Of a stretch of 64,000 nucleotides of DNA, positions 3,001 to 59,100 are shown piece by piece (position 1 is the first letter of the stretch; each line of letters begins with the position of its first letter). The stretch comes from Chitinophagales bacterium (GTDB lineage Bacteria > Bacteroidota > Bacteroidia > Chitinophagales > LD1). The notes under the pieces were generated by a model, which saw nothing but the letters and a program-made list of their open reading frames with translations, did not search any database and was not told where the DNA came from. The stretch spans positions 76,443 to 140,442 of the forward strand of contig JAXLUN010000004.1 of NCBI GenBank assembly GCA_046329535.1, given 5' to 3'. The position numbers were made by a program, and so were the translations under genes.

Positions 3001-3395
3001 ATCCGTTGGTGGCACCTAGAACAACAACAACATTTACAGTTTTGGTTATGAATTCAGATTCATGCTATGCTTCCGATACAGTGACTGTTATTGTATTGAA
3101 TCAACCTTCAGCGTTCATACCTACCGCATTTACACCGAATGATGATTTATTGAATGATCGTTTCGAGTTTGATATTTTGGGTGCTACCAACATTGAGGTG
3201 ACTGTGTTTAACCGCTGGGGACAAAAAGTGTATTTCAATGCAGCACAACCAAACGGTATTAATAATCAAAACGGATGGGATGGAAAGGTAGATGGTAAAC
3301 TGGCACCTTTTGATACGTACGTTTATCAATTGACAGTTACCTATTGGGATAATGCCACCAAAGACTTTACAGGAACTGTAACACTAATGAAATAG
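3..3395 (+). CDS. Partial (5'-truncated at window edge) cell-surface adhesin with at least 12 tandem SprB-type repeats and a T9SS type-B (gliding-motility-associated) C-terminal domain
   Basis: The frame is open from the window edge, and the track start is an in-frame TTG rather than a real start. A ~76-aa repeat with signature GGxxPYxYxWSNGATTEDxxGLxxGxYxVxVTDxNGC occurs 12 times. The C-terminus FIPTAFTPNDDLLNDRF..VFNRWGQKVY..WDGK..YVYQLTV..GTVTLMK fits the type-B CTD pattern. Confidence 0.85.
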   Translation: MWSNGATTEDITGLSAGTYNVAVTDSKGCAASAGATIAQPLPLFVNVASYQNLLCNNDSSGYVDITANGGVPPYSFVWNNAETTEDITNLPIGTYDVTVTDAYGCLGNQSQVITQPAVLTSTITPTDIPCAGGVGGSVDLTVSGGTPSYSYLWNNGATTQDLSNVSGGNYSVVVYDANGCSITNSTTVAEPLPINLTSTVTNVLCNGLATGAIDISVTGGAGNYVYSWSNGSANQDLSGLVAGSYSVTVTDGNNCTASISVIITQPAGIVLNATPTNVGCAGGNNGAVDITVQGGIFPYSYLWSNGATTEDISGLSGGTYDVTITDNNLCTVTNSYTITEPTAITSSVTHTDVSCNGSSDGTADLSVSGGTSPYTYLWSNFLGSQDVTGLHGGLYYVIITDANGCERRDSVLISEPAVLSLSTTVTSISCYNSNDGAVDVSVNGGTPGYTYFWSNGAQTEDLSGLQNGVYAVTVTDTNGCTATTSITIVNPSIITANFIVHDPLCFGSNDGVVDLIPSGGTPGYTYSWSTGDNTEDISGIGGGLFIVTITDSKGCTRVDSASAVEPQPLVTSGVIKNVTCAGNSDGFIDITAYGGTLPYSYTWSTQQSTEDVFNLPGGNYFVSVTDANACQVASLYIIREPLPLTTSIVSNNVNCFGQKTGSVAVIPAGGTTPYYYLWNNFATDSALTGLNAGKYTVQLIDSNGCLTYDTAFITEPAQIAITGTVTDVVCFGASTGSVTLTVTGGTPTYTFAWTGGSSTQDLLYATAGTYTVTVTDANTCTLSSTFNIMQGAKIITNLAGYNPICNGGTTGAASAIVTGGAAPYTYLWSTTPVQTGVAISGIKAGDYYLTVTDALNCTTIDSITLIEPQPIVVLTNATGAKCYNTATGNVITTVTGGNSPYTYLLNGVARDTGVFSNLAPGNYLILVTDVNGCQGNASFIVSSPSELSVDLGVTQQVILTGMNTQLVANATSTSPIIHYFWSPDSVVDYSICSDPSNCSNPLVAPRTTTTFTVLVMNSDSCYASDTVTVIVLNQPSAFIPTAFTPNDDLLNDRFEFDILGATNIEVTVFNRWGQKVYFNAAQPNGINNQNGWDGKVDGKLAPFDTYVYQLTVTYWDNATKDFTGTVTLMK

Positions 3396-3418
3396 AAATA
3401 TAAACGGATTATTTTTTA

Positions 3419-3452
3419 ATGCCCCGCATTTTTTGCGGGGCATTTTTATTTT
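3419..3452 (+). terminator. Rho-independent terminator after the adhesin gene
   Basis: ATGCCCCGC (3419-3427) pairs with GCGGGGCAT (3435-3443) around a 7-nt loop and is followed by TTTTATTTT. Confidence 0.75.
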
Positions 3453-3458
3453 CATGTA

Positions 3459-3965
3459 ATGAATTACCCAGCAAGCTACTTTGTTCAGAAATTTAGTATG
3501 ACTGAACACCCCGAAGGAGGATGGTACAAAGAAACTTATCGAAGCCAGGAGCATATTCATGCAGATGCACTACCGGATAGATTTAACGGGAAGAGAAACT
3601 TTTCTACGGCTATTTACTTTCTTCTCGAAGGCCATCAGTTTTCTTCCTTTCATCGAATTAAGAGTGACGAGTTATGGCATTTTTATGCAGGTGGCACACT
3701 CAATATTTACGTAATAGACTTCCATGGGGAATTAGAGGTCATTCGGTTAGGAAGCAACTTAGAGAATGGGGAAGTTTTTCAATCTGTTGTAAAAGCCGGT
3801 TGCTGGTTCGCTTCTAAACCAGCTACCGAGAATTCATTCTCTCTGGTTGGGTGCACTGTTTCACCGGGTTTTGATTTTTCTGACTTTGAGCTGGCTACAA
3901 GAGACCAACTTTCAAAACTTTATCCCCAACAAAGTGAGATTATCAATAGTCTTTGCCGTTCCTGA
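3459..3965 (+). CDS. Cupin-fold protein (DUF985/YML079w-like)
   Basis: 168 aa. The N-terminal MTEHPEGGWYKETYRS motif is typical of the DUF985 cupin family, and the rest looks beta-rich. Confidence 0.65.
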   Translation: MNYPASYFVQKFSMTEHPEGGWYKETYRSQEHIHADALPDRFNGKRNFSTAIYFLLEGHQFSSFHRIKSDELWHFYAGGTLNIYVIDFHGELEVIRLGSNLENGEVFQSVVKAGCWFASKPATENSFSLVGCTVSPGFDFSDFELATRDQLSKLYPQQSEIINSLCRS

Positions 3966-36822: not shown

Positions 36823-37263
36823 AGTGTGTGTGTAATATGCCTGCTACCAAAAGTATTTGAAAGCCACATAACCAAAAAATATTTCACGTATTATTTTTTG
36901 CTAAAACCCTTGCTGCATCAGGGTTTTAGCGTATGGTTAATGCATAATTTGGCAATATACATACCCAATATGGGGTAAAAAATACCTAATAGGGTGTAGT
37001 ATAAGCTTGGGTGCAAAATGAAAACCGACAGCAGCCTGCTGCCTGCCTCCACGGCTGGTATTTTAACTTTAACCCCTAACAAGCGGAAAAGAAAACCTGC
37101 ACCACTTATTTACAAAAGCCTTATGCAACCACGGTTTGGGTGCATTTTGAAACCCGAATAGCCCCCCAAAAGCACCTGATAAACCCTGAAAAACGCCAAA
37201 ATTTGTCTTTGCGTGCCGCCACCGCAGCCCCTAACCTTGTGTTGCCAAAAGCAAGAAAGGTTT

Positions 37264-37698
37264 ATGAACTTAACTATCCATACCCCAACCCTTCAGCCAC
37301 CGCACACCCTGCTGCTAAGCAACAGCGATGGTTGGTTTAACATACCGCTTGGTAACATTTTGGTATGCAGCAGTTGTAACTCGTACACCGTGGTTAAGCT
37401 AACCGGTGGGCAGCAAATAGTGGTGTCGCAAAATATGCCGTATTACGAAAAAGCCCTCAGCCCCCTGGGTTTTGCACGTATACACCAAAGCCACCTCATC
37501 AATTTGCAGCACCTAACCCACCTGAGCAAAGCCACAGGCGGGGTAGATGCCACCCTCAGCAACGGTTTAATACTGCCCGTATCGCGACAGTTTAAAACCT
37601 CTTTAATAGAAACCCTTAAACAGCGCAGTGTAGATGCCCTACTGCGCCAGGGTATGCAAATACCCGATACGCCTAAAACACAACCCGATTCAAATTAA
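37264..37698 (+). CDS. Stand-alone LytTR-domain DNA-binding protein (no receiver domain)
   Basis: 144 aa. The segment IPLGNILVCSSCNSYTVVKLTGGQQIVVSQNMPYYEKALSPLGFARIHQSHLINLQHL matches the LytTR pattern (xxSxxNYxxxxxxxG....R...HRSxxVN). The track start at 37213 is GTG, and ATG at 37264 is preferred. Confidence 0.75.
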   Translation: MNLTIHTPTLQPPHTLLLSNSDGWFNIPLGNILVCSSCNSYTVVKLTGGQQIVVSQNMPYYEKALSPLGFARIHQSHLINLQHLTHLSKATGGVDATLSNGLILPVSRQFKTSLIETLKQRSVDALLRQGMQIPDTPKTQPDSN

Positions 37699-37812: not shown

Positions 37813-38165
37813 CTTCCAAAAACATGGAAGTGGATTTCGGACATCGGAAATCGACTTCCAAAAACATGGAAGTGGACTTCAGACACGGGAAGTCGACTTC
37901 CAAAAACATGGAAGTGGACTTCGGACACGGGAAGTCGACTTCCAAAAACATGGAAGTGGACTTCAGACACGGGAAGTCGACTTCCAAAAACATGGAAGTG
38001 GACTTCAGACACGGGAAATCGACTTCCAAAAACATGGAAGTGGATTTCGGACATCGGAAATCGACTTCCGAAAACATGGAAGTGGACTTCGGACACGGGA
38101 AATCGACTTCCAAAAACACGGAAGTGGATTTCGGACATCGGAAATTGACCTCCCAAAACAGGGAA
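37813..38165. repeat. Tandem array of 8 complete 42-bp units plus a degenerate ninth, equal to 16 palindromic GGAAGT-SG-ACTTC(C) sites at ~21-bp spacing
   Basis: Unit boundaries fall at 37813, 37855, 37897, 37939, 37981, 38023, 38065 and 38107. The consensus is CTTCCAAAAACATGGAAGTGGACTTCrGACAyGGGAArTCGA. The unit junction forms the perfect 14-bp palindrome GGAAGTCGACTTCC. Confidence 0.95.
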
Positions 38166-38291: not shown

Positions 38292-39266
38292 ATGATTAAT
38301 CCAATTCGTCTTTGTAACAATTTATTTAATGAGAAGAGCCTATCAGATGCCAACCTTCGTAGTTTTTGCGAAGATCATCTGATACGCCTGTCAAACAACA
38401 ATCCGGGAGCTATATACAGTACGCTTATTTCAGAAACTACCAATAAGTATACGGCTTACTATGGTAAAATGACCAGCCAGGCGGTTCAACTCTCTATACA
38501 GGAAAGTATGACGGCCAGTATGAAAGACGCAAAAGTTTTAGTAGAAGAGAAGATACGCTCTTTCTATGGTTTGGCACTTTTCAAGTTTGGCGAAGGCAAT
38601 CCTTCTTTTCAAATGCTTTATCCACTTGGCCTGGGCGAGTATATGAACGCCAAAATAGGCGATGTAAATAAACTATACGAACGTTTGGTAATCAATGCCA
38701 CCACTTTGCTTAATGCCGATTTTCCGGCCGAGGTTACAGCTCTTGATAACGCGGTGGCGGCTTATTTATCAGCCCGTACCGCCCAGGAAAATGCCTTTAG
38801 TTTGGTAGATAATTTAATTACCGGCAAAAACAGCGACCGCCTGGCGCTGACCGTTCAGCTAACCAAAAACTTTTTAATAGTAGCCTCTAACAACATTAGC
38901 AACCCCGACCAGTTTAATGACTTTTACGATGCGGCCTATCTGCCTATTTCCGAGAGTAGCCAAAGCATAACCGAAGAAGGAATAATTACCGGCAAACAGA
39001 TTATTAATATACAGCCCGATGGGGTGGTTTATACCAACCAAACCATGATAGAACTTTACAACCCCGGCCTGACCACCCTGCGCTACTACTTTGCCCCGGT
39101 ACCCGGTGTAGACCCTAACGAATCGGAACCATTTGTAGAGGTAGCGGCCAATGAGCAAATAACAAAATCTGCAACCGCCCTGGGCCTTAGCCCCGACCGG
39201 CAGTTTTTTACCGTTCAAAATCAACAGGAATTAACCGGCAGTTATAAAGTAATTATAAAGCCCTAA
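38292..39266 (+). CDS. Hypothetical protein (helical N-terminal ~220 aa, beta-rich C-terminal ~100 aa)
   Basis: 324-aa ORF starting ~130 bp downstream of the 42-bp array. It has no signal peptide and no recognised motif. Confidence 0.5.
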   Translation: MINPIRLCNNLFNEKSLSDANLRSFCEDHLIRLSNNNPGAIYSTLISETTNKYTAYYGKMTSQAVQLSIQESMTASMKDAKVLVEEKIRSFYGLALFKFGEGNPSFQMLYPLGLGEYMNAKIGDVNKLYERLVINATTLLNADFPAEVTALDNAVAAYLSARTAQENAFSLVDNLITGKNSDRLALTVQLTKNFLIVASNNISNPDQFNDFYDAAYLPISESSQSITEEGIITGKQIINIQPDGVVYTNQTMIELYNPGLTTLRYYFAPVPGVDPNESEPFVEVAANEQITKSATALGLSPDRQFFTVQNQQELTGSYKVIIKP

Positions 39267-50862: not shown

Positions 50863-53800
50863 TTACTTGAGCAAGGTTACAGTGCCTTTGTATTTTCGGT
50901 TTTCACCATCTAAAAATGTAATGTTAGCTACATAGCTATAAACCCCGGGGTAGGCATCTTTGCCCTGATAGGTACCATCCCAGCCGATGGTGGTATTGTT
51001 AGAGTCGAACACCTTTTCGCCCCAGCGGTTAAATACCGTAAGCTTAAAGTAAACGGTATTGAGCGCGTAAACGGTAAACACATCGTTTTGCCCGTTGCCA
51101 TCGGGGGTAAACACGTTAGGAATAAACACTTGCTTATCGGCCAATACATTTACCTGTATTTCGCCAGAGGCTGAGCAGCCATTAGGGTCGGTTACCACTA
51201 CTTGATACTCCATGCTGTGAATAGCTGAGAAAGCCGGCATGGCACAGTCTGTACAGCTTAGATAAACAGCCGGGCTCCAGCTATAGGTATAGCTATTGTT
51301 GGCCGGAGTAATATTTACGTTTAAGCCTATTTCAGTGCCAAAGGGTATAGAGTCGAAACTGAGGCTGTTAAGGGTAATCTGGTCGGGTTCGGTCACTACT
51401 ACGGAATCGCTGGACTGGCAGTTGTTGGCATCGTTTACGGTGATGTTGTAGGTAGCCGCACCAACGTTTTGCAATGGTGCACCTGCACTGCCATTGCTCC
51501 AGTTAAAATTATAAGGTGGAACGCCCCCGGTAGCGGATACCTGTGCGCCTCCATCGGTATAACCAAAGCAGGTAGCGTTGGTTACGTTATCTACACTTAA
51601 AAGGAGCGGGGCTGGCGATTGCACGGTATAGGTAGCGCTGTCTAAGCATTGATTGGCATCGTATACCACCACACCATAGCTGCCGGCCGAAAGGGCAGAA
51701 GCGGTAGCTGTGTTTTGAACCGGTGTGGTGTTCCACACATACGAGTAGGATGGAGTGCCGCTGTTGGCAGTAACTGTAATGGCAGCATCGGCTGCGGCAA
51801 AACAGCTTTCATCGGTAGCATTAACCAGCGACAGCACCGGATTGGGGTTAACCGTAACCGTTAAGGTATTGCTGGTGTATTGGCAGCCGTTGGCATCTTG
51901 GCCGCTAAGGGTAAAGCTGCCCGACTGGGTAACGTTTATGTTATTGCCGGTAGCATTGTTGCTCCACAGGTAGCTAACGTAGGTAGAGTCGGAAGTTAAA
52001 TCGACATTGCCGCCTTGGCAGAACGCAAGCGGCCCTGCGGCACTGATAGTGGTAGGGGCAGGCGGGTTGTAAGTAACATTGATAGTGTTGCTGATATACT
52101 GACAGCCGGCTGCATCTACTGCGCCCATAAACCAGGCCCCCGGTTGCGATACGGTAACCGAGTTGGCCGTTGAATTATCGCTCCATAAATACGTAGCATA
52201 CACCGAGTCGGAGGTAAGGGTAACGCTGCCGCCCGCACATACAGGTATAGCACCCCCTGCGCTAATGGTAGTAGCAGCCGGAGGGTTTACGGTAACATTT
52301 ACCGTATCGGTAGCAAAGCAAGCACCGTTTATACCTACTAAAACATAAGGAGTGGTAACCGGTGCTGCAGTAGTATTGGTGTTGGTGTAAGTTGGGTTAG
52401 AAACGGTAGAGTCGGACAGGTGAAGCGAAGGCTGCCACAAGTAGGTAAAGCCCGCAGCGGGTGCGCTGCCTATTTGCACGGTGCCGCCCGAACAAACCGC
52501 TACATCGGGGCCGGCATTTGAAACCGGAGCAGCCGTAATGGTAAGGGTTTGGCTAACCTGAGGCGATACACAGCCTCCATCGGTTACATCGAGGGTAATG
52601 GTTTTATTGCCAAAGCCGCTCCACAGCACCTGATAAGGGCCCTGGCCGCTGCCGCTTTGAATAGTGCCGCCATTAAAGTTCCAGGTGTAGTTGGCGCTGG
52701 TAGGCGAGGTGCCGGTGTAGTTAACGGTTACCGGATTGTTTTCGCACACGGTATCGGGTAAAATAACAAACGACTGAGCGCCTCCGCCCAAGATAGTTAC
52801 ATCAATATTATCTACATCGGCACAGCCCCAGCGGTCGGTTACCACTACATTGTAGGTAGTGTTTACCACCGGATTAACCACATACGGGTTGGCGGTTGAG
52901 TTGCCGGGGTTCCAGGTATACACATAAGGGGCCGAACCCAGCAGGGTAGAAGCCGAAAAGCTGAGCGTGCTGCCGCCACAAACGGCCGTATCGTTAGGTA
53001 TAGTTAATTGCGGACAAAGGTTTACTTCAATTACCGATACACTTTGGGTATTGCAGGGGTAGTCGTTCCATTGGCCCGAAGAGTAGATTTGCGGACAATC
53101 TTCGCCATTGGCGCAGCGGTAGGCCTCGCTGCTTTGGCAGCCGCCCAACCAATCGGGAAAACTGCAACACGAAGAGTTCTGCCCGTTATTATTCGGCTCG
53201 CCCGGTGCCCAGTTCAGGTAGGTCATAGGGGTGCCATCCAGGGTTACCCAGGTGCCTTCATTGGCCTGGTCGGTGTAGCCCACCCACACAGCCTGATTGC
53301 CCGATATAATGCCCGCAGCATTGAGTGCCGCCACCACGGCTGCGTTTTCGGCAGCATCGTTAAACACTACCAGGTGCGCGCCCAATTGGCGGGCGGCAGT
53401 TTCGGCAGCATTGGCATCTTGCGAGGTAGGGTTTATAAAATATAAGCTGCATTGCTGGCCTTGCACCCCGCTCAGCTCGTTGTAACCCGCAGCGGCAAAG
53501 GCAGCGCGCAGGGCAAACAAATCGCAGCCCGGAGGGCCGGTGCACACCTGTGTGGTTACAGTGGCCGTAGCCGTAGCCTGGCAACTGTAGCGGTCGGTTA
53601 CTTGTACCTGATACGAGGTAGTAGCGCTGGGGGTAATATCAAGAATAGACGAGTTGCCTACGGTAGCGCCACCGGGCAGTTCGCTCCAGGTATAGCTGTA
53701 AGGTTGCGAGCCCAAAATAGTAGTAGCCGAAGCCTGTGTGTGGTAGCCCGAGCAAACCGGCAGGGCCGGAACCGTAGTGGTTATTTGCGGACAAAGGTTT

Positions 53801-54375
53801 ACTTCAATTACCGATACACTTTGCCTATCGCAAGGCAGGTCGTTCCAGTTTCCACCGCCATATATCTGCACACAATCCTCCCCGTATTGACAGCGCCATG
53901 CCTGGCTGCTTTGGCAACCGCCCAAGGCATCGGGAAAATTGCAACACGATGACCCCTGCCCGTTGTTGTTAGGCTCGCCCGATGACCAGTTAAGGTAGGT
54001 CATAGGCGTGCCGTCAAGCGTTACCCAGGTGCCTTCGCTGGCAGCATCGGTGTAGCCTATCCACACAGCCTGGTTGGCCGATATAATGCCCGCTGCATTA
54101 AGGGCCGCTACCACAGCCGTGTTTTCGGCTGCATCGTTAAACACCACCAGGTGGCCGCCCAGTTGCTGAGCCGCTACCTCGGCTACGTTGGCATCTTGCG
54201 AAGTAGGGTTAATAAAATACATACTGCACGGCTGACCCTGCACGCCCGTAAGCTCTATATAGCCCGCATTGGTATAGGCGGTTCTGATTGCCTGAATATT
54301 GCAACCCACGGGTTGTGCTACCCCTATAAAACCAGTAAAGACCAACAAACTCAGTAACAATAAGAGGTTTTTCAT
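50863..54375 (-). CDS. Secreted protein with two tandem C-type lectin-like domains, Ig-like/SprB repeats and a T9SS type-B C-terminal domain
   Basis: Signal peptide MKNLLLLLSLLVFTGFIGVAQ. The CTLD signature occurs twice: WIGYTD..EGTWVTLDGTPMTYLNW..GEPNNNGQ..GEDCVQIY..GNWNDLPC. SprB-type repeats are present (GTPSYSYVWN, GGVPPYNFNWSNG). The C-terminus is FIPNVFTPDGNGQNDVF..VFNRWGEKVF..WDGTYQGK..GVYSYV..GTVTLLK. Confidence 0.85.
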   Translation of the reverse strand: MKNLLLLLSLLVFTGFIGVAQPVGCNIQAIRTAYTNAGYIELTGVQGQPCSMYFINPTSQDANVAEVAAQQLGGHLVVFNDAAENTAVVAALNAAGIISANQAVWIGYTDAASEGTWVTLDGTPMTYLNWSSGEPNNNGQGSSCCNFPDALGGCQSSQAWRCQYGEDCVQIYGGGNWNDLPCDRQSVSVIEVNLCPQITTTVPALPVCSGYHTQASATTILGSQPYSYTWSELPGGATVGNSSILDITPSATTSYQVQVTDRYSCQATATATVTTQVCTGPPGCDLFALRAAFAAAGYNELSGVQGQQCSLYFINPTSQDANAAETAARQLGAHLVVFNDAAENAAVVAALNAAGIISGNQAVWVGYTDQANEGTWVTLDGTPMTYLNWAPGEPNNNGQNSSCCSFPDWLGGCQSSEAYRCANGEDCPQIYSSGQWNDYPCNTQSVSVIEVNLCPQLTIPNDTAVCGGSTLSFSASTLLGSAPYVYTWNPGNSTANPYVVNPVVNTTYNVVVTDRWGCADVDNIDVTILGGGAQSFVILPDTVCENNPVTVNYTGTSPTSANYTWNFNGGTIQSGSGQGPYQVLWSGFGNKTITLDVTDGGCVSPQVSQTLTITAAPVSNAGPDVAVCSGGTVQIGSAPAAGFTYLWQPSLHLSDSTVSNPTYTNTNTTAAPVTTPYVLVGINGACFATDTVNVTVNPPAATTISAGGAIPVCAGGSVTLTSDSVYATYLWSDNSTANSVTVSQPGAWFMGAVDAAGCQYISNTINVTYNPPAPTTISAAGPLAFCQGGNVDLTSDSTYVSYLWSNNATGNNINVTQSGSFTLSGQDANGCQYTSNTLTVTVNPNPVLSLVNATDESCFAAADAAITVTANSGTPSYSYVWNTTPVQNTATASALSAGSYGVVVYDANQCLDSATYTVQSPAPLLLSVDNVTNATCFGYTDGGAQVSATGGVPPYNFNWSNGSAGAPLQNVGAATYNITVNDANNCQSSDSVVVTEPDQITLNSLSFDSIPFGTEIGLNVNITPANNSYTYSWSPAVYLSCTDCAMPAFSAIHSMEYQVVVTDPNGCSASGEIQVNVLADKQVFIPNVFTPDGNGQNDVFTVYALNTVYFKLTVFNRWGEKVFDSNNTTIGWDGTYQGKDAYPGVYSYVANITFLDGENRKYKGTVTLLK
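53008..54303 (-). repeat. Intragenic tandem duplication (~780-bp period) of the CTLD-plus-linker module
   Basis: Residues ~25-196 and ~284-456 are near-identical. At DNA level, for example, GCGGACAAAGGTTTACTTCAATTACCGATACACTTTG occurs at both ~53010 and ~53790. Confidence 0.85.
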
Positions 54376-54535: not shown

Positions 54536-55471
54536 CTAAAAAGTCAGCGAAAAATCGAGTTGGCTGATAGTGCCTTTGGGTATAGAGAAAGGTACCGCAG
54601 CCGTAATAAACCCGCTGGCAGTGCATTGCACCGTGTAGCTACCATAAGGCACACCCGTAATGCGGTAGATGCCTTCGCGATCGGTAAGGCCGGTGTCGCC
54701 TGTTTCTACCACGGTTATTGTTGCCCCGGCTATGGCTGTGGCATCGGCCTGGTTGGTTACGCTGCCGCGCAGCCCCGCAATGCCGGCCCCGCGAATGATG
54801 TAGAGGACTTTTTCCCACACAAATTGTTCGCGGAGTGCTTCATCGTTTCGAAAGGCGCGTTTCCCGTCTTTACAAAGCTGTATTATCTTATCGTATAAAG
54901 TATTGTTGGCTGTAATTTTAGCCTGTGTTTCCTGCTCACGCAGTTCTTCCTGATCTTGAAAATAGGAGAGAGCCAACTGAAAAGCGGCAGCTACATTGGT
55001 AAAGGTGGCGATAAAGACAGGCGGCATGTTGCCATTGGCTGTTAGCTGAGCGGTGTTATCGGTAAAAAACTGGATACCGCTTGCCATGAGGCCGGTGACG
55101 CTTTCCCAATCGAAGCCGGAAGCGGCCTGGTACTTTTTAGAGCCTGCTGCTTCGAGGGCAATTTTTTGCATGGCTCCTTTAAAGTCTTCGGCATCTTCAA
55201 TATAGCCTTTTAGCAGCTGCCAGGTATTGAGACATTTGGTTGCAGCGGTTTCGCATTCCAGCTTTATGGCTTTTACTACGGCTGCGCGGAAGTCTTCATC
55301 GGGCAGGGCTTCGGCTGCTGCCAGTTCGGTGAGGAGCGAGTTAAAATAGGGCAGGTCGTATTTAGGTTTAACGAGAGCGAGTTCGGGCTGTTTTCGAATG
55401 GCTGCCCGGATAACCATGCGGCCTGCCGAATAGAAGTCGGGCTGGCTGCAGTGATATTTTGCATCAGACAT
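54536..55471 (-). CDS. Hypothetical protein with a helical N-terminal ~225 aa and a C-terminal carboxypeptidase-regulatory-like beta-sandwich
   Basis: 311 aa. The C-terminal GSVTNQADATAIAGATITVVETGDTGLTDREGIYRITGVPYGSYTVQCTASGF fits the CarboxypepD_reg pattern. There is no signal peptide. Confidence 0.55.
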   Translation of the reverse strand: MSDAKYHCSQPDFYSAGRMVIRAAIRKQPELALVKPKYDLPYFNSLLTELAAAEALPDEDFRAAVVKAIKLECETAATKCLNTWQLLKGYIEDAEDFKGAMQKIALEAAGSKKYQAASGFDWESVTGLMASGIQFFTDNTAQLTANGNMPPVFIATFTNVAAAFQLALSYFQDQEELREQETQAKITANNTLYDKIIQLCKDGKRAFRNDEALREQFVWEKVLYIIRGAGIAGLRGSVTNQADATAIAGATITVVETGDTGLTDREGIYRITGVPYGSYTVQCTASGFITAAVPFSIPKGTISQLDFSLTF

Positions 55472-55639
55472 AGTTGTTTGTTTTAGAGATTAAGAAATAG
55501 AGAACCATGACAATAAGCGTTCGAACTGCTTGTGTTAGAAACGCATGGAGGAGTTTTAATATTGTGATTGGACTGTCATGGTATTGTCATAAATACAGCG
55601 GCAGACAGAAGTTAGTAAGATGGATGCTGAAAGGGTAGA

Positions 55640-55930
55640 GAGAAAAACAGCAGTACGCAAGAGTAAAGCCTGTATGGGTAGGAGAAAAGGCGGTGCCGGT
55701 AAGAGAAAAACCCGTATGAGGAGGAGAAAAGGGGGTACCGGATAGTGCCCGGGCGGTATGGGAAAGAGAAAAGGCGGGATTAGGCGGAGAAACGCCTGTG
55801 TTAGAAAGTGCAGAGGCTGAGTTGGGAAGAGAAAAGGCGGTACCGGTAAGAGAAAAACGCGCGGGTAGTAAGAGAAAAGCCTGTATAGGCAGGAGAAAGG
55901 GGGAGGCCGGATTTAGAAGGAGAAGACACC
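55640..55930. repeat. Degenerate 21-bp-phased repeat array with a conserved GAGAAAA core
   Basis: Cores fall at 55640, 55661, 55682, 55703, 55724, 55766, 55787, 55829, 55850, 55872 and 55893, on a 21-bp lattice with degenerate units at ~55745, ~55808 and ~55914. The array lies in the 710-bp divergent intergenic region. Confidence 0.8.
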
Positions 55931-56181
55931 GGGGGAGTAACCTTAAGCCCTCAACGCATAACAACTTTACCTTGGCTTTATTAACTTGCAGTAATGAAGT
56001 GTAAAACAGTGGAGGCATGAAAAGAAAGGGCGCAAGTGGTATTTTGTCTTGTTGCGGGAAGGAAACGGGTTTACCATTTGAGTATTTAATATGGTTTGAT
56101 GAGTAGACAATAAGCTTTGATTAGTAGTTAATAATTGTTTTATTTTACAAAAGAGATTAAGCACACTAAAAACCACCTACT

Positions 56182-59100
56182 ATGAAACACAAAATTTACA
56201 TCCTGCTTTTGTTTTGTATTTACGTTTGTTTAGCAGTAACAACGAGGGCACAAAGTATTGCGCTTACCGGTGGTAACGTAATACAATATTGCGGAGCAAA
56301 TCGCGTAGTGTCATTTACTGTGGACGGTATGACGAGTAATAATATTAGCGGGAGTTTTTCTATGCTAGGAGGAACAAGTTCTCCGTTTTTGAACATTGTA
56401 AATATTACCAGTAGTAACCCCTCCGTAAATATAATAACGGGAACGTTAAACGCAACTACTGTAAGTTATACTTTGACTGTTGGAACCGGCAATACAGAAG
56501 TGATAGATTTGAATGTAGAAATAGAACCCGACTGCGAGATATTTGATTTGTATGTTTCGGGACAATATCATGGCTTTAACGGGGCGTATCCTATACAGCG
56601 AGGCATCTCTGCCCAGTTAGGAACCAACCCAACTACCGATTTTCCGGTTACTATCAATTTTCCGCTGTTGGCTGTATCAAGTACACCGGTTAGTGGTAGC
56701 CAATCAACCAGTTGCAATTTGGTTTGGGATAATACTAACCAAGCGTATAGGCGGACAATACGAATTGTAAATAATGGGGAGCCGATGAGTCTTACCGGAG
56801 CAGAAGTAAGGTTTGTAGAAAATTTTAGTTCCGGGCTGCTAAATATAACCAGTGTAACAAATCAATCAAACAGTGTTCTAACGGGAGCGTTGCCCGCCAT
56901 ACCGGCAAATCCTTTTTATGTAACGATTAGCGGCAATAATCTTTCATTGGCCATTGATAATACTGACGGAGACGCCAATGTTTGGGGGCAGGGTGAAGTT
57001 TTAACGATGATTGAGGTGATTGATGACTGCCCGGAATTTAACTCCCAAATACATGTTGAGTACAGATGCGGGGAAATGCCGAGCGGAAATTATTGCTACG
57101 GCTCAGTGCCGTTTACCTGCCAAGGAACAGGAAGTAATACACCAGTTATTAGCGCTACTCTCTCAGGATTTGACCCCGCCTTTACACCAGATTACTGCTA
57201 TGGTACGGGCAATTTGAATCATTTTATTTTACAGTTAACGAATACATCTGCCACTGCAACTGATGCGGCTTTGGTAAAAGTATTTTTTGCAAATACTGTT
57301 GGTTCTATGACGACATTTAATTTCAATACACTTGCAGTTACTTCAAGTTTGGGCGGTGCGATTGCACACAGTATTGTTACGAGTAGCGCGGGCGTTAGTG
57401 TTGAGTTTGCTGCAAATACATATTTGCACCAATACGAAGTCTATACTTTGACATGGGATGGTAGTATTGGTTGCCCGGTTGGTGCGAGTTGTACGGATAT
57501 ATCGAGCATGTACAGAAGATATGAGTATGAGTATGAAGGAGGTTGTGAATTGGATAATCAGTATAATAAAGGGCCTTACGCTTTCTTTGACCCGAATACA
57601 GTGAGTGTGTATATGGGTGGGTTGAGCGTGCCACCAGCTATTGGGCCTACCAGTTTAGTGCATACAGGAACACCAGGAACAGATGCCAATGAAGCTGTAT
57701 CTACCTATGAAGTAAATATACCTGCAAATGTACCTTATGCGTTATGGCCAGGCAATGGGAATAACCGAGCGTATATTTTGAACTTTACCCTTTGTGAAGA
57801 TATGGTGTTTGAAAACAACGTAGATTGGGGAGGCGGATTAGTTACGAGTTCTGCGGCTATCATTCCTGATGTTTCAGTAATGATACCAGGAGTAACAGGA
57901 TGGACAAGTTTAAATAATCTGCCCTCGGGAATTTCGGCCATGTTTCAATCTTATAGCGGGGGTAGCGGTATTACACTGACCCTGCCATTTGGTACTAGTA
58001 TAGGCGGAGTGACTGTAGATGAAGATTTTTTGAACGGATTGAGTTTTCAAATTCGAGTAAGGCCGCACTGCGGTTCGGGCAATCCTCAATGTGCATTAAG
58101 TGTTACAGCTTCTTATGTACCTGACCGGACATGCGCTACACCTTGTACTATACCGATAGGTTGTAGTATTAAAAGGGTAAACATACAGTGCCCAGGTTGT
58201 ATTATAAGTGGAATTTACAGCAACGTTATGTATGGAGAGCGATACAGTGGAGATTATGGATTGATTGATGACGATGATAATGGGCTGGCAGATTCTCAGG
58301 TTTCTGCTTTTACGTCTACCAACAACCAAGTACGAAGAAAGACGCTGATGTATGGCGACCGAGTAGAGCTTAATTATAACGGGGAGGTTAACCTGGGTTC
58401 AGGTTATTTTCCTTCTGTATCTGCAACTGCAAACACGTTAACTGCTTTTGGAAATTTGATGGCAGGGAGCCCAACCGAGCAAACTTACTACGCAGCAAAT
58501 CAGGCAAAGTTGGGCTTCAATTATGCGTATCTCAGGGTTTCTTTTTCGGACGGAGACCCTATACCGGGTGTTGGTAACCATTTTGCAGATTTGATGACTG
58601 CAAGTGACGGAGACGGGACGGACCCACATCTTCTACTTACCATACATGACGGCACGAATGATTATAATTTCAACCTAAGCACCACCAACTCCGGTATTAA
58701 CAACTTTATGTATCGGAATACAATTGCTGCCGGTTCTACTGGAGGGGAGGATGAATACTTGTATGATATTTCGGTGGCAACTCTAAATTCCATAGGTCCC
58801 GATGTTTTACCGACCGGTAATGGTGGTTTCAGATACCATGACGGTGTAACCATAGATGCTAAACTTATTTACAAGTTAGACAGGAATGTAGGGGTTAACA
58901 ACAACTTTCCTTACGGATTGGACGAAGGTATTTCTGTTGGCTGCTATGGTTCACTGCGGGCAGTTGATATTGACAACCCTACAGATTGGCCTGTAGACCG
59001 AAGATATATACAATGCTCAACACCTTTTACAAGCCAAACAGTTTTGACGGGAGCTTGTAATAATCCAAATACATTAAGCACATGTAACAACCCTGTAAAC

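Follow-up and report, generated by a model that had tools for sequence, protein, structure and literature searches.

In this study, we followed up a phased repeat in a stretch of 64,000 nt from a Chitinophagales bacterium (contig JAXLUN010000004.1; the whole stretch is called the window below) and found that, in arrays of this kind, period and position are conserved and sequence is not, across two gene families of like predicted architecture. The repeat, array 1, occupies 55638..55932, with no strand assigned, and comprises about 14 units on a 21-bp lattice upstream of a minus-strand gene for a protein of 311 amino acids (aa), which belongs to family 1. A second repeat in the window, array 2, precedes a 324-aa gene of family 2. 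Judged from the sequences, the same 21/42-bp spacing built from unrelated units points to an undescribed spacing-dependent control element. Our favoured reading, held tentatively and with slightly less than even confidence, is that array 1 is a cis-acting DNA scaffold of same-face sites, which through cooperative binding and/or in-phase bending would control the downstream gene or operon; the binding protein and the regulatory effect are parts of this reading that we infer.

Results

Array 1 is real and non-coding, and its lattice lies far beyond chance. Direct reading, Tandem Repeats Finder (TRF) and autocorrelation each recovered the phased GAGAAAA array of about 14 x 21 bp that an earlier note on this DNA had described. 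Each unit joins a 9-10-bp purine core (AAGAGAAAAG) to a GC-rich spacer; the plus-strand consensus is AAGAGAAAAGGCgGTaTcGGg, purines make up 75% of that strand, and the core reads CTTTTCTCT in the sense of the 311-aa gene. GAGAAA(A) occurs at 55640, 55682, 55703, 55724, 55766, 55787, 55829 and 55850, always in phase 0 modulo 21. The unit at 55848-55869 is 22 bp long, the only 1-bp indel of the array, and it shifts the cores at 55872 and 55893 to phase +1. Position 55661 reads GAGTAAA; the three degenerate lattice positions that had been counted before are 55745, 55808 and 55914. Eight of the 17 plus-strand copies of GAGAAAA in the whole 64 kb fall within the 290 bp of array 1. TRF reported a period of 21 bp with 9.4 copies (58% matches) and one of 42 bp with 2.0 copies (82%), and the lag-21 autocorrelation reached 0.49, where shuffled sequence gave 0.304 +/- 0.025 (z = 7.4). 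Across the window, the lag-21/42 signal is strongest at array 1 and at 37.8 kb. Mean pairwise unit identity is 0.55, and it is unevenly spread, with 0.73 in the core and 0.46 in the rest of the unit (p = 0.03, permutation). The spacers are of two types in alternation, which gives array 1 a 42-bp super-period, best kept in the pair of super-units at 55659..55741 that TRF scored as 42 bp x 2.0 with 82% matches. Type A reads CCyGTATGrGG; type B is GGCGGTaCCGGT and holds the palindrome CGGTACCG, which at only 8 bp and in alternate units is the palindrome of this array.

To place array 1 in context, homologues of the 311-aa protein were gathered with a word-indexed search, which gave 21 proteins, and with an exhaustive hidden Markov model (HMM) search, which gave dozens of full-length clusters of about 310 aa at 50% identity and was swamped by multi-CarboxypepD_reg proteins; a metagenome scan contributed only two family-1 loci. 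The comparison covers 13 distinct loci with usable upstream sequence (loci and contigs carry L numbers), with homologues that are 27-61% identical, from Chitinophagaceae, Segetibacter and Saprospiraceae, that is, from several families of Chitinophagales and Saprospirales. A strict 21-bp lattice of 5-15 units, ending 65-250 bp before the ATG, lies upstream in 8 of the 13. Beside the approximately 14 units of the window array (CTTTTCTCT on the sense strand), there are 12 units in L016 (GTTTGCGCC, in exact 21-bp steps, with a second 21-bp array further upstream), 15 in L024 (TCATTCAAT), 11 in L020 (CTACCGTGCGGCCTTACGAGG), about 12 in L021, about 10 each in L019 and L027, and about six in L023. 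L014 has three units only, and no upstream array was found in L017, L022, L025 and L026. Unit sequences are unrelated among the family-1 arrays, which often show super-periods of 42, 63 and 84 bp.

Within single arrays, conservation falls in one contiguous block of about 9 bp in four of seven cases (permutation p = 0.005-0.055), with no 3-base periodicity. The clearest case is L016, where twelve cores keep exact 21-bp steps despite diverged spacers and core identity is 0.93 against 0.49 (p = 0.005); the corresponding values are p = 0.03 for L020 and p = 0.055 for L024. L016 and L014, whose proteins are 61% identical, have the core TTGCGCC in common and differ in their spacers.

The second repeat extends the pattern to a different gene family. 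In the TRF run over the whole window, array 2 occupies 37813..38165 and has 8.4 copies of a 42-bp unit (91% matches); a 14-bp palindrome, GGAAGTCGACTTCC, recurs in it at intervals of about 21 bp. Directly upstream lies a gene for a LytTR-only DNA-binding protein (37213..37698, plus strand), downstream the 324-aa gene (38292..39266, plus strand), and further downstream again a gene for a PKD/CHU_C protein of the type IX secretion system (T9SS). This order of LytTR gene, array and gene is syntenic in L028, L030 and L031, which, counting the window, makes four loci from two lineages with a LytTR gene immediately before the array; the L029 array has no adjoining LytTR gene. In all four distinct family-2 loci, an array with a period of 42 bp lies 58-127 bp before the gene, with copies 91-96% alike and unit sequences unrelated between loci. 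Family-2 arrays are rich in short palindromes and have RNA-fold z-scores of -5 to -15, and family-1 arrays do not. The family-2 gene carries a mosaic hypervariable segment: L028 and L030 are 65-87% identical over its C-terminal part and 95-100% identical in the flanks.

The earlier note had asked whether related regions conserve phase rather than sequence, and the answer is strongly positive (8/13 family-1 and 4/4 family-2 loci). In a non-redundant survey of 170 kb, every array of at least 100 bp with a 21n period lies upstream of a family-1 or family-2 gene, with one exception, a 168-bp repeat directly downstream of a family-2 gene.

Several further observations were made on these repeats. 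The exceptional repeat (L032 5061-5559) has 3.0 copies of a 168-bp (4 x 42) unit that are 97% identical. L032 also has, directly before its array, a gene for a 121-aa protein (3153-3518) with a weak LytTR match (E = 0.003), and that array (3771-3943) contains seven LytTR consensus matches against 0.17 expected. The short-read contigs L033-L036 break inside an array-2-type repeat, at position 1 of each, and false open reading frames (ORFs) of 110-137 aa are annotated across 42-bp arrays in L029 (3551-3964) and L030 (3638-3970). Microsatellites of 7 bp (up to 26 copies of TCATTAC) and of 8 bp flank 21-bp arrays (L016 4188-4462, L024 2427-2490, L019 878-959, L032 1889-1921), and most tandem repeats of the 170-kb survey have periods that are multiples of 7. 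Finally, three family-1 loci without a large array (L014 2540-2700, L017 1690-1850, L013 1-150) have in common a conserved element of about 130 nt with an AAGGAGG Shine-Dalgarno-like box, a mini-ORF (ATGAAACAGCC...) and then a GC-rich, structured-looking segment, for which Rfam gave no match.

Of its two neighbours, it is the 311-aa gene, not the giant ORF, to which array 1 belongs. The 311-aa gene (54536..55471, minus strand) has its ATG 167 bp from the array and is followed downstream by a gene (50863..54375, minus strand) for a 1170-aa protein with C-type lectin, SprB-repeat and CHU_C (T9SS type B signal) features, its likely operon partner. The ATG of the giant ORF, at 56182, is 250 bp from array 1, and the intergenic region is 710 bp long; the distances quoted earlier were right. 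In an alignment of the window with five sister-strain contigs from other metagenomes, array 1 is about 99% identical and has an equal number of units, and its copy number is invariant across these six sequences and L012. Phase variation through copy number was rejected on the equal unit number. On the plus side, four of the five sister contigs and L012 carry a different gene, encoding a beta-helix/T9SS protein of 690-742 aa; its ATG aligns with position 56017 of the window, which leaves 85 bp to the far end of array 1 (L001, L002, L008, L010 and L012 were compared for the whole gene). The window keeps its first 15 nt as a remnant (ATGAAAAGAAAGGGC, 56017..56031, plus strand), up to a strain-specific junction at about 56031/56032, approximately 100 bp past the array, where the giant-ORF region replaces the T9SS gene. 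Because sister strains carry another gene there and array 1 is unchanged, the giant ORF is a strain-specific neighbour, and the earlier proposal that the array serves it had to be given up. The constant partner of array 1 is the 311-aa gene, followed by the 1170-aa gene, and in all other genomes, too, the array is found with a gene of the 311-aa family, regardless of its other neighbour. The locus adjoins a ribosomal-protein operon in all strains.

The 311-aa protein has an all-helical N-domain (residues 1-226), a C-terminal CarboxypepD_reg/transthyretin-like beta-sandwich and no signal peptide. AlphaFold predicts the same layout for the 324-aa protein, with a helical N-domain that contains two helices of about 55 residues and a C-terminal beta-sandwich, and no sequence homology between the two was detectable (profile-profile comparison probability 1.2%). 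Searches of Pfam, PHROGs, NCBIfam and PADLOC with the 311-aa protein matched the beta-sandwich C-domain and gave one marginal hit in the N-domain (PADLOC CARF_HEPN, E = 0.0055); the same four returned no match to the 324-aa protein. With PDB sequence profiles and with Foldseek (both models against PDB, the 311-aa model also against BFVD), matches were confined to the beta-sandwich C-domains, and neither N-domain found relatives. A search of 72,556 plasmids and 50,697 phages recovered no member of the family of the 311-aa protein. The N-domain of this protein varies from strain to strain as an allelic mosaic: its coding region is 63-67% identical between the window and L012, whose array is 99% identical and whose background is 97-100% identical. 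More generally, the two differ by mosaic hypervariable segments of 63-85% identity in a 97-100% identical background, at 55430-54840, 54536-54240 and 51536-51090, which cover the 311-aa N-domain, the start of the 1170-aa gene and part of the 1170-aa C-terminal region. Family neighbourhoods are variable and often defence-like. Genes beside family 1 include type I restriction HsdR, DUF4411/PIN, a Cas9 alpha-lobe fragment, CdiA_C and a PIF1-type helicase, and defence or conflict neighbours lie at L024 2-1963, L025 2156-2698, L017 2-1276, L014 1259-1489 and L013 1179-4211.

The leader or promoter-proximal region between array 1 and the ATG of the 311-aa gene (55472..55637, minus strand) contains no canonical Bacteroidetes TAnnTTTG box; the consensus scan gave nothing useful, and a sigma-70 promoter scan stayed at chance level. 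Three ATGACA motifs lie in this region at 55504-55590 and form 9-nt inverted arms (55504-55515 and 55574-55590), 61-66 nt apart, which may be an operator or a leader hairpin. On the other side, directly upstream of the giant ORF, TRF found a mini-array of 21 bp x 2.7 copies (TGAGTAGTTAATAAGCTTTGA, 56079..56134), each unit of which closes with a TA-N3-TTTG-like motif.

In-silico curvature had been proposed as a check on array 1, and with a wedge model (Bolshoy roll and tilt, Kabsch twist) the array is predicted to bend in phase and more strongly than the background. The modelled ratio of end-to-end to contour length is 0.769 for array 1, against 0.907 +/- 0.06 over all 295-bp windows (3rd percentile), and 0.95 in variants de-phased by 5 bp; by our arithmetic, a ratio of 0.77 would correspond to about 140 degrees if the bend were a planar arc. 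In the same model, few stretches of the window are more curved than array 2, and all 11 arrays are predicted to fall below the mean of their own shuffles. An A4-5 tract occurs once per 21 bp in array 1, and in most family-1 arrays the gene-sense strand has phased T-runs of at least 3, at about one per unit. The L020 array is without A/T tracts, and A-tract bending therefore cannot be a universal feature.

In its geometry, array 1 is LytTR-like or iteron-like, yet membership fails for each named family tested. LytTR operators (AgrA/ComE/PlnC/SilA) are made of 9-bp repeats with a 12-bp spacer, or of 10 + 11 bp, 21 bp from centre to centre (PMC2766830). Array 1 resembles them in its direct repeats of a 9-10-bp core and an 11-12-bp spacer, and also in lying upstream of its gene, as these operators sit directly upstream of the regulated promoter (PMC2766830). 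They have two (rarely three) repeats per promoter, whereas array 1 has about 14, and [TA][AC][CA]GTTN[AG][TG] has no match on either strand of array 1. Among the scanned window ORFs, the only LytTR gene is that at 37213-37698, and family-1 loci contain none. With this gene beside array 2 and no consensus match in array 1, the window LytTR protein, earlier put forward for testing on array 1, is not borne out as its reader.

Replication iterons, such as those of pSC101, R6K, P1 and lambda ori, are tandem direct repeats spaced about two helical turns apart, on which many copies of one protein bind on one face with intrinsic bending. Array 1 has the tandem direct repeats of 17-22 bp and the phasing of approximately two turns; unlike iterons, it comes without a Rep gene, a DnaA box or an AT-rich unwinding element, is chromosomal, and accompanies a protein family absent from plasmids and phages. 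No DnaA box within one mismatch of the consensus occurs in array 1, and when the adjacent 311-aa protein was tested as an initiator (Rep), Pfam found only CarboxypepD_reg. The F-plasmid centromere sopC has 12 units of 43 bp, each with a 16-bp inverted repeat (PMC3177203). The resemblance, a palindrome in each unit of a long tandem repeat whose period is about 42-43 bp, is best for array 2. Unlike sopC, the arrays precede a gene and do not close a par operon, and sopA/sopB-type genes are lacking; beside array 1 there are no parA or parB genes, its neighbours being the 311-aa protein, T9SS cargo and ribosomal protein genes. An iteron or centromere identity was rejected on the lack of Rep or Par genes, DnaA boxes and plasmid or phage homologues.

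Classic curved elements have an A-tract at each turn (10-11 bp) over a length of 50-100 bp. With helically phased A-tracts and a predicted curvature above background, array 1 resembles intrinsically curved A-tract DNA of the kind known upstream of promoters, and it differs from the classic elements in having one tract per 21 bp, not one every 10-11 bp. Guide arrays were considered as well, as these also combine a tandem array beside a compact protein gene with alternating conserved and less conserved segments. TIGR arrays have 36-nt units, two unit-specific spacers, box C/D flanks and a Nop-domain protein (10.64898/2026.09.09.750476); the arrays described here have units of 21/42 nt and two to three recurring spacer types, unlike unit-specific spacers, and Pfam gave no Nop-domain match. 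A TIGR/CRISPR-like guide array was rejected on unit length and because unit-specific spacers and a Nop domain are lacking, and scans of viral contigs with the unit sequences returned one chance-level 18-mer match, which is not an array. Our literature searches found no description of 21/42-bp arrays in Bacteroidetes.

Discussion

The reading we favour for array 1, a cis-acting scaffold, would work as follows. About 14 sites would be presented just upstream of the gene at a spacing of two helical turns (four for the super-unit), and sites exactly two turns apart all face the same side of the helix. An oligomerising DNA-binding protein could fill these sites cooperatively, and the DNA upstream of the promoter would then be wrapped or stiffened by the joint action of this binding and the in-phase bend of the DNA itself. 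This in turn would set the transcription of the hypervariable 311-aa gene and probably also of the 1170-aa T9SS lectin/SprB gene as its operon partner; sister strains have the divergent T9SS gene 85 bp beyond the far end of the array, and there it may be served by the array as well. Of the earlier proposal of curved DNA or a multi-site regulator platform for one or both divergent genes, the platform and its curvature are partly supported, by the predicted bending and the geometry of 9-10-bp cores and 11-12-bp spacers, and the link to the giant ORF does not.

A number of points weigh against this reading. The nearest LytTR gene is 18 kb from array 1, beside array 2, and array 1 has no LytTR consensus match; by analogy, 14 sites would also far exceed any known LytTR-type operator. 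Unit sequences differ wholly between loci, which means that there is no common sequence-specific reader, and each array would need its own reader or one that recognises shape or period. Neither the adjacent 311-aa protein nor the 324-aa protein has a recognisable DNA-binding, nuclease or polymerase fold. Moreover, the 311-aa N-domain is swapped between strains and the array is unchanged, which weighs against this domain as its sequence-specific reader. The predicted curvature signal is modest. Part of the period conservation could be inherited via concerted evolution, a process that accounts for part of the pattern but not for contiguous cores or for persistence over family-level divergence. 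Finally, the promoter scans placed no canonical promoter, leaving the array either upstream of the start or inside the transcript, and for this reason a role as an RNA leader stays a serious rival.

In that alternative, serious though unlikely in our estimate, the array is transcribed, as a long 5' leader or a separate non-coding RNA, and acts at the RNA level. The gene-sense strand would give an unstructured, C/U-rich and G-poor RNA with CUUUUCUCU every 21 nt, which could be a platform for an RNA-binding protein or a Rho-loading (rut-like) leader gating read-through into the 311-aa gene. In 11 of 12 loci, no canonical promoter was found between array and ATG. Five of nine family-1 arrays are rich in C and poor in G on the gene-sense strand (C 0.35-0.40, G 0.12-0.20), and in eight of ten family-1 arrays T-runs are polar relative to the gene. 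The bias is, however, reversed in L021 and L027 and absent in L020. Folding agrees with an unstructured leader in the window, where neither strand of array 1 beats its shuffles (z = -0.6 and -1.2), and the strong hairpins of the family-2 arrays, four of which follow a LytTR gene directly and on the same strand, also suit an RNA; set side by side, unstructured family-1 and hairpin-forming family-2 arrays have the period as their only common RNA feature. To our knowledge, a 21-nt RNA period has no known reader, and 21 bp is two turns of the DNA helix. Rfam gave nothing inside array 1 and one sub-threshold PtaRNA1 match outside it, and in sister strains the divergent gene 85 bp from the far end would leave little room for an upstream promoter. 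Array 1 as a structured RNA or a member of a known RNA family was rejected on the folding z-scores and Rfam.

A further possibility, to which we give limited but real weight, is that the arrays and the proteins of about 320 aa together make up an undescribed two-component module of Chitinophagales and Saprospirales, a new class of element and not a variant of operator arrays, in which the array would be the nucleic-acid partner of the protein or a period-reading nucleoprotein switch for variable surface or defence functions. More specifically, and rather improbably in our view, the array would be the cognate nucleic-acid partner of the adjacent protein in a two-part module, DNA or RNA that the module itself recognises and that moves along with a hypervariable gene, frequently within variable or defence islands, and not a site for a host regulator. 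Array and gene do stay together amid unrelated neighbours (HsdR, DUF4411/PIN, the Cas9 fragment, CdiA_C, PIF1 helicase, T9SS cargo), arrays lie beside both families of like predicted architecture, the proteins have mosaic hypervariable domains, and unit sequences turn over together with the proteins. Yet these proteins are without a nucleic-acid-binding, nuclease or polymerase domain, the N-domain allele can change with the array unchanged, and four family-1 loci have no array. The absence of unit-specific variable spacers also means that there is no guide-like information, and the sole 18-mer match in viral contigs is at chance level.

The arrays could also be functionless minisatellites, an explanation we regard as improbable. 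An ancestral 21-bp tandem repeat upstream of an ancestral gene would have been kept by unequal crossing-over, which renews sequence and automatically keeps period. Higher-order periods (42, 63, 84 and 168) and the homogeneous family-2 arrays (91-96%) are hallmarks of concerted evolution, many neighbouring repeats with 7-bp or 14-bp periods suggest a slippage-prone region, and the four family-1 loci without an array manage without it. What such a process does not explain is that arrays persist in the same place over family-level divergence and in two gene families, that conservation sits in a contiguous core and is not evenly spread, and that L014 and L016 share a core and differ in their spacers. 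In addition, the window array is old (55% mean unit identity), yet it has a single 1-bp indel and no copy-number difference between strains.

Two last alternatives fare far worse. It is very improbable that array 1 is an iteron or centromere-type array of an integrated replicon, that is, a Rep-bound origin set or a sopC-like partition site: period (approximately 21-22 bp) and copy number fit iterons and the palindromic 42-bp units of array 2 resemble F sopC (PMC3177203), but no Rep, ParA or ParB gene is nearby, the adjacent protein is absent from the 72,556 plasmids and 50,697 phages, DnaA boxes within one mismatch are lacking, and the locus adjoins the ribosomal-protein operon in all strains.

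Hardly credible, lastly, is a true gene in the 143-aa minus-strand ORF across array 1 (55587..56018), which would encode a heptad-repeat protein of the FSLTGTA type; the earlier note had already taken this ORF for an artefact, and we agree. The frame is open across 143 codons because 21 nt equals seven codons and the minus strand is pyrimidine-rich, such strands being naturally poor in stop codons. In favour of a gene, the L024 array keeps one frame with apparently synonymous wobble changes (ACN TCN TTC AAT). Against it, the 22-bp unit moves the repeat against the frame (FLL before, FSL after), all three sense frames of the L020, L021 and L023 arrays contain stops, and variation shows no 3-nt periodicity, the core keeping whole codons invariant in a block of nine contiguous bases. 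The ORF was called neither by PGAP nor on ten sister contigs, has no Pfam match, and is absent from a collection of 15 billion proteins in which both neighbour genes of the same metagenome-assembled genome are present. Coding was ruled out on the frame shift, the stops in homologous arrays, the lack of codon periodicity and the lack of a gene call.

In conclusion, if the arrays are functional, they would be a rare case in which selection keeps spacing, at two or four helical turns and over at most 15 units, and leaves sequence free, a pattern that would point to a reader of geometry or to cognate readers that co-evolve fast. Their 21n-nt periods have a practical side as well, creating long false ORFs that are sometimes annotated (L029, L030) and breaking short-read assemblies (L033-L036). 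Two protein families of abundant environmental Bacteroidota, uncharacterised and hypervariable, have their upstream regions marked by the arrays; their genes are found in front of T9SS cargo and in variable or defence islands, and the arrays, if functional, would offer a concrete handle on the control of such surface-protein loci.

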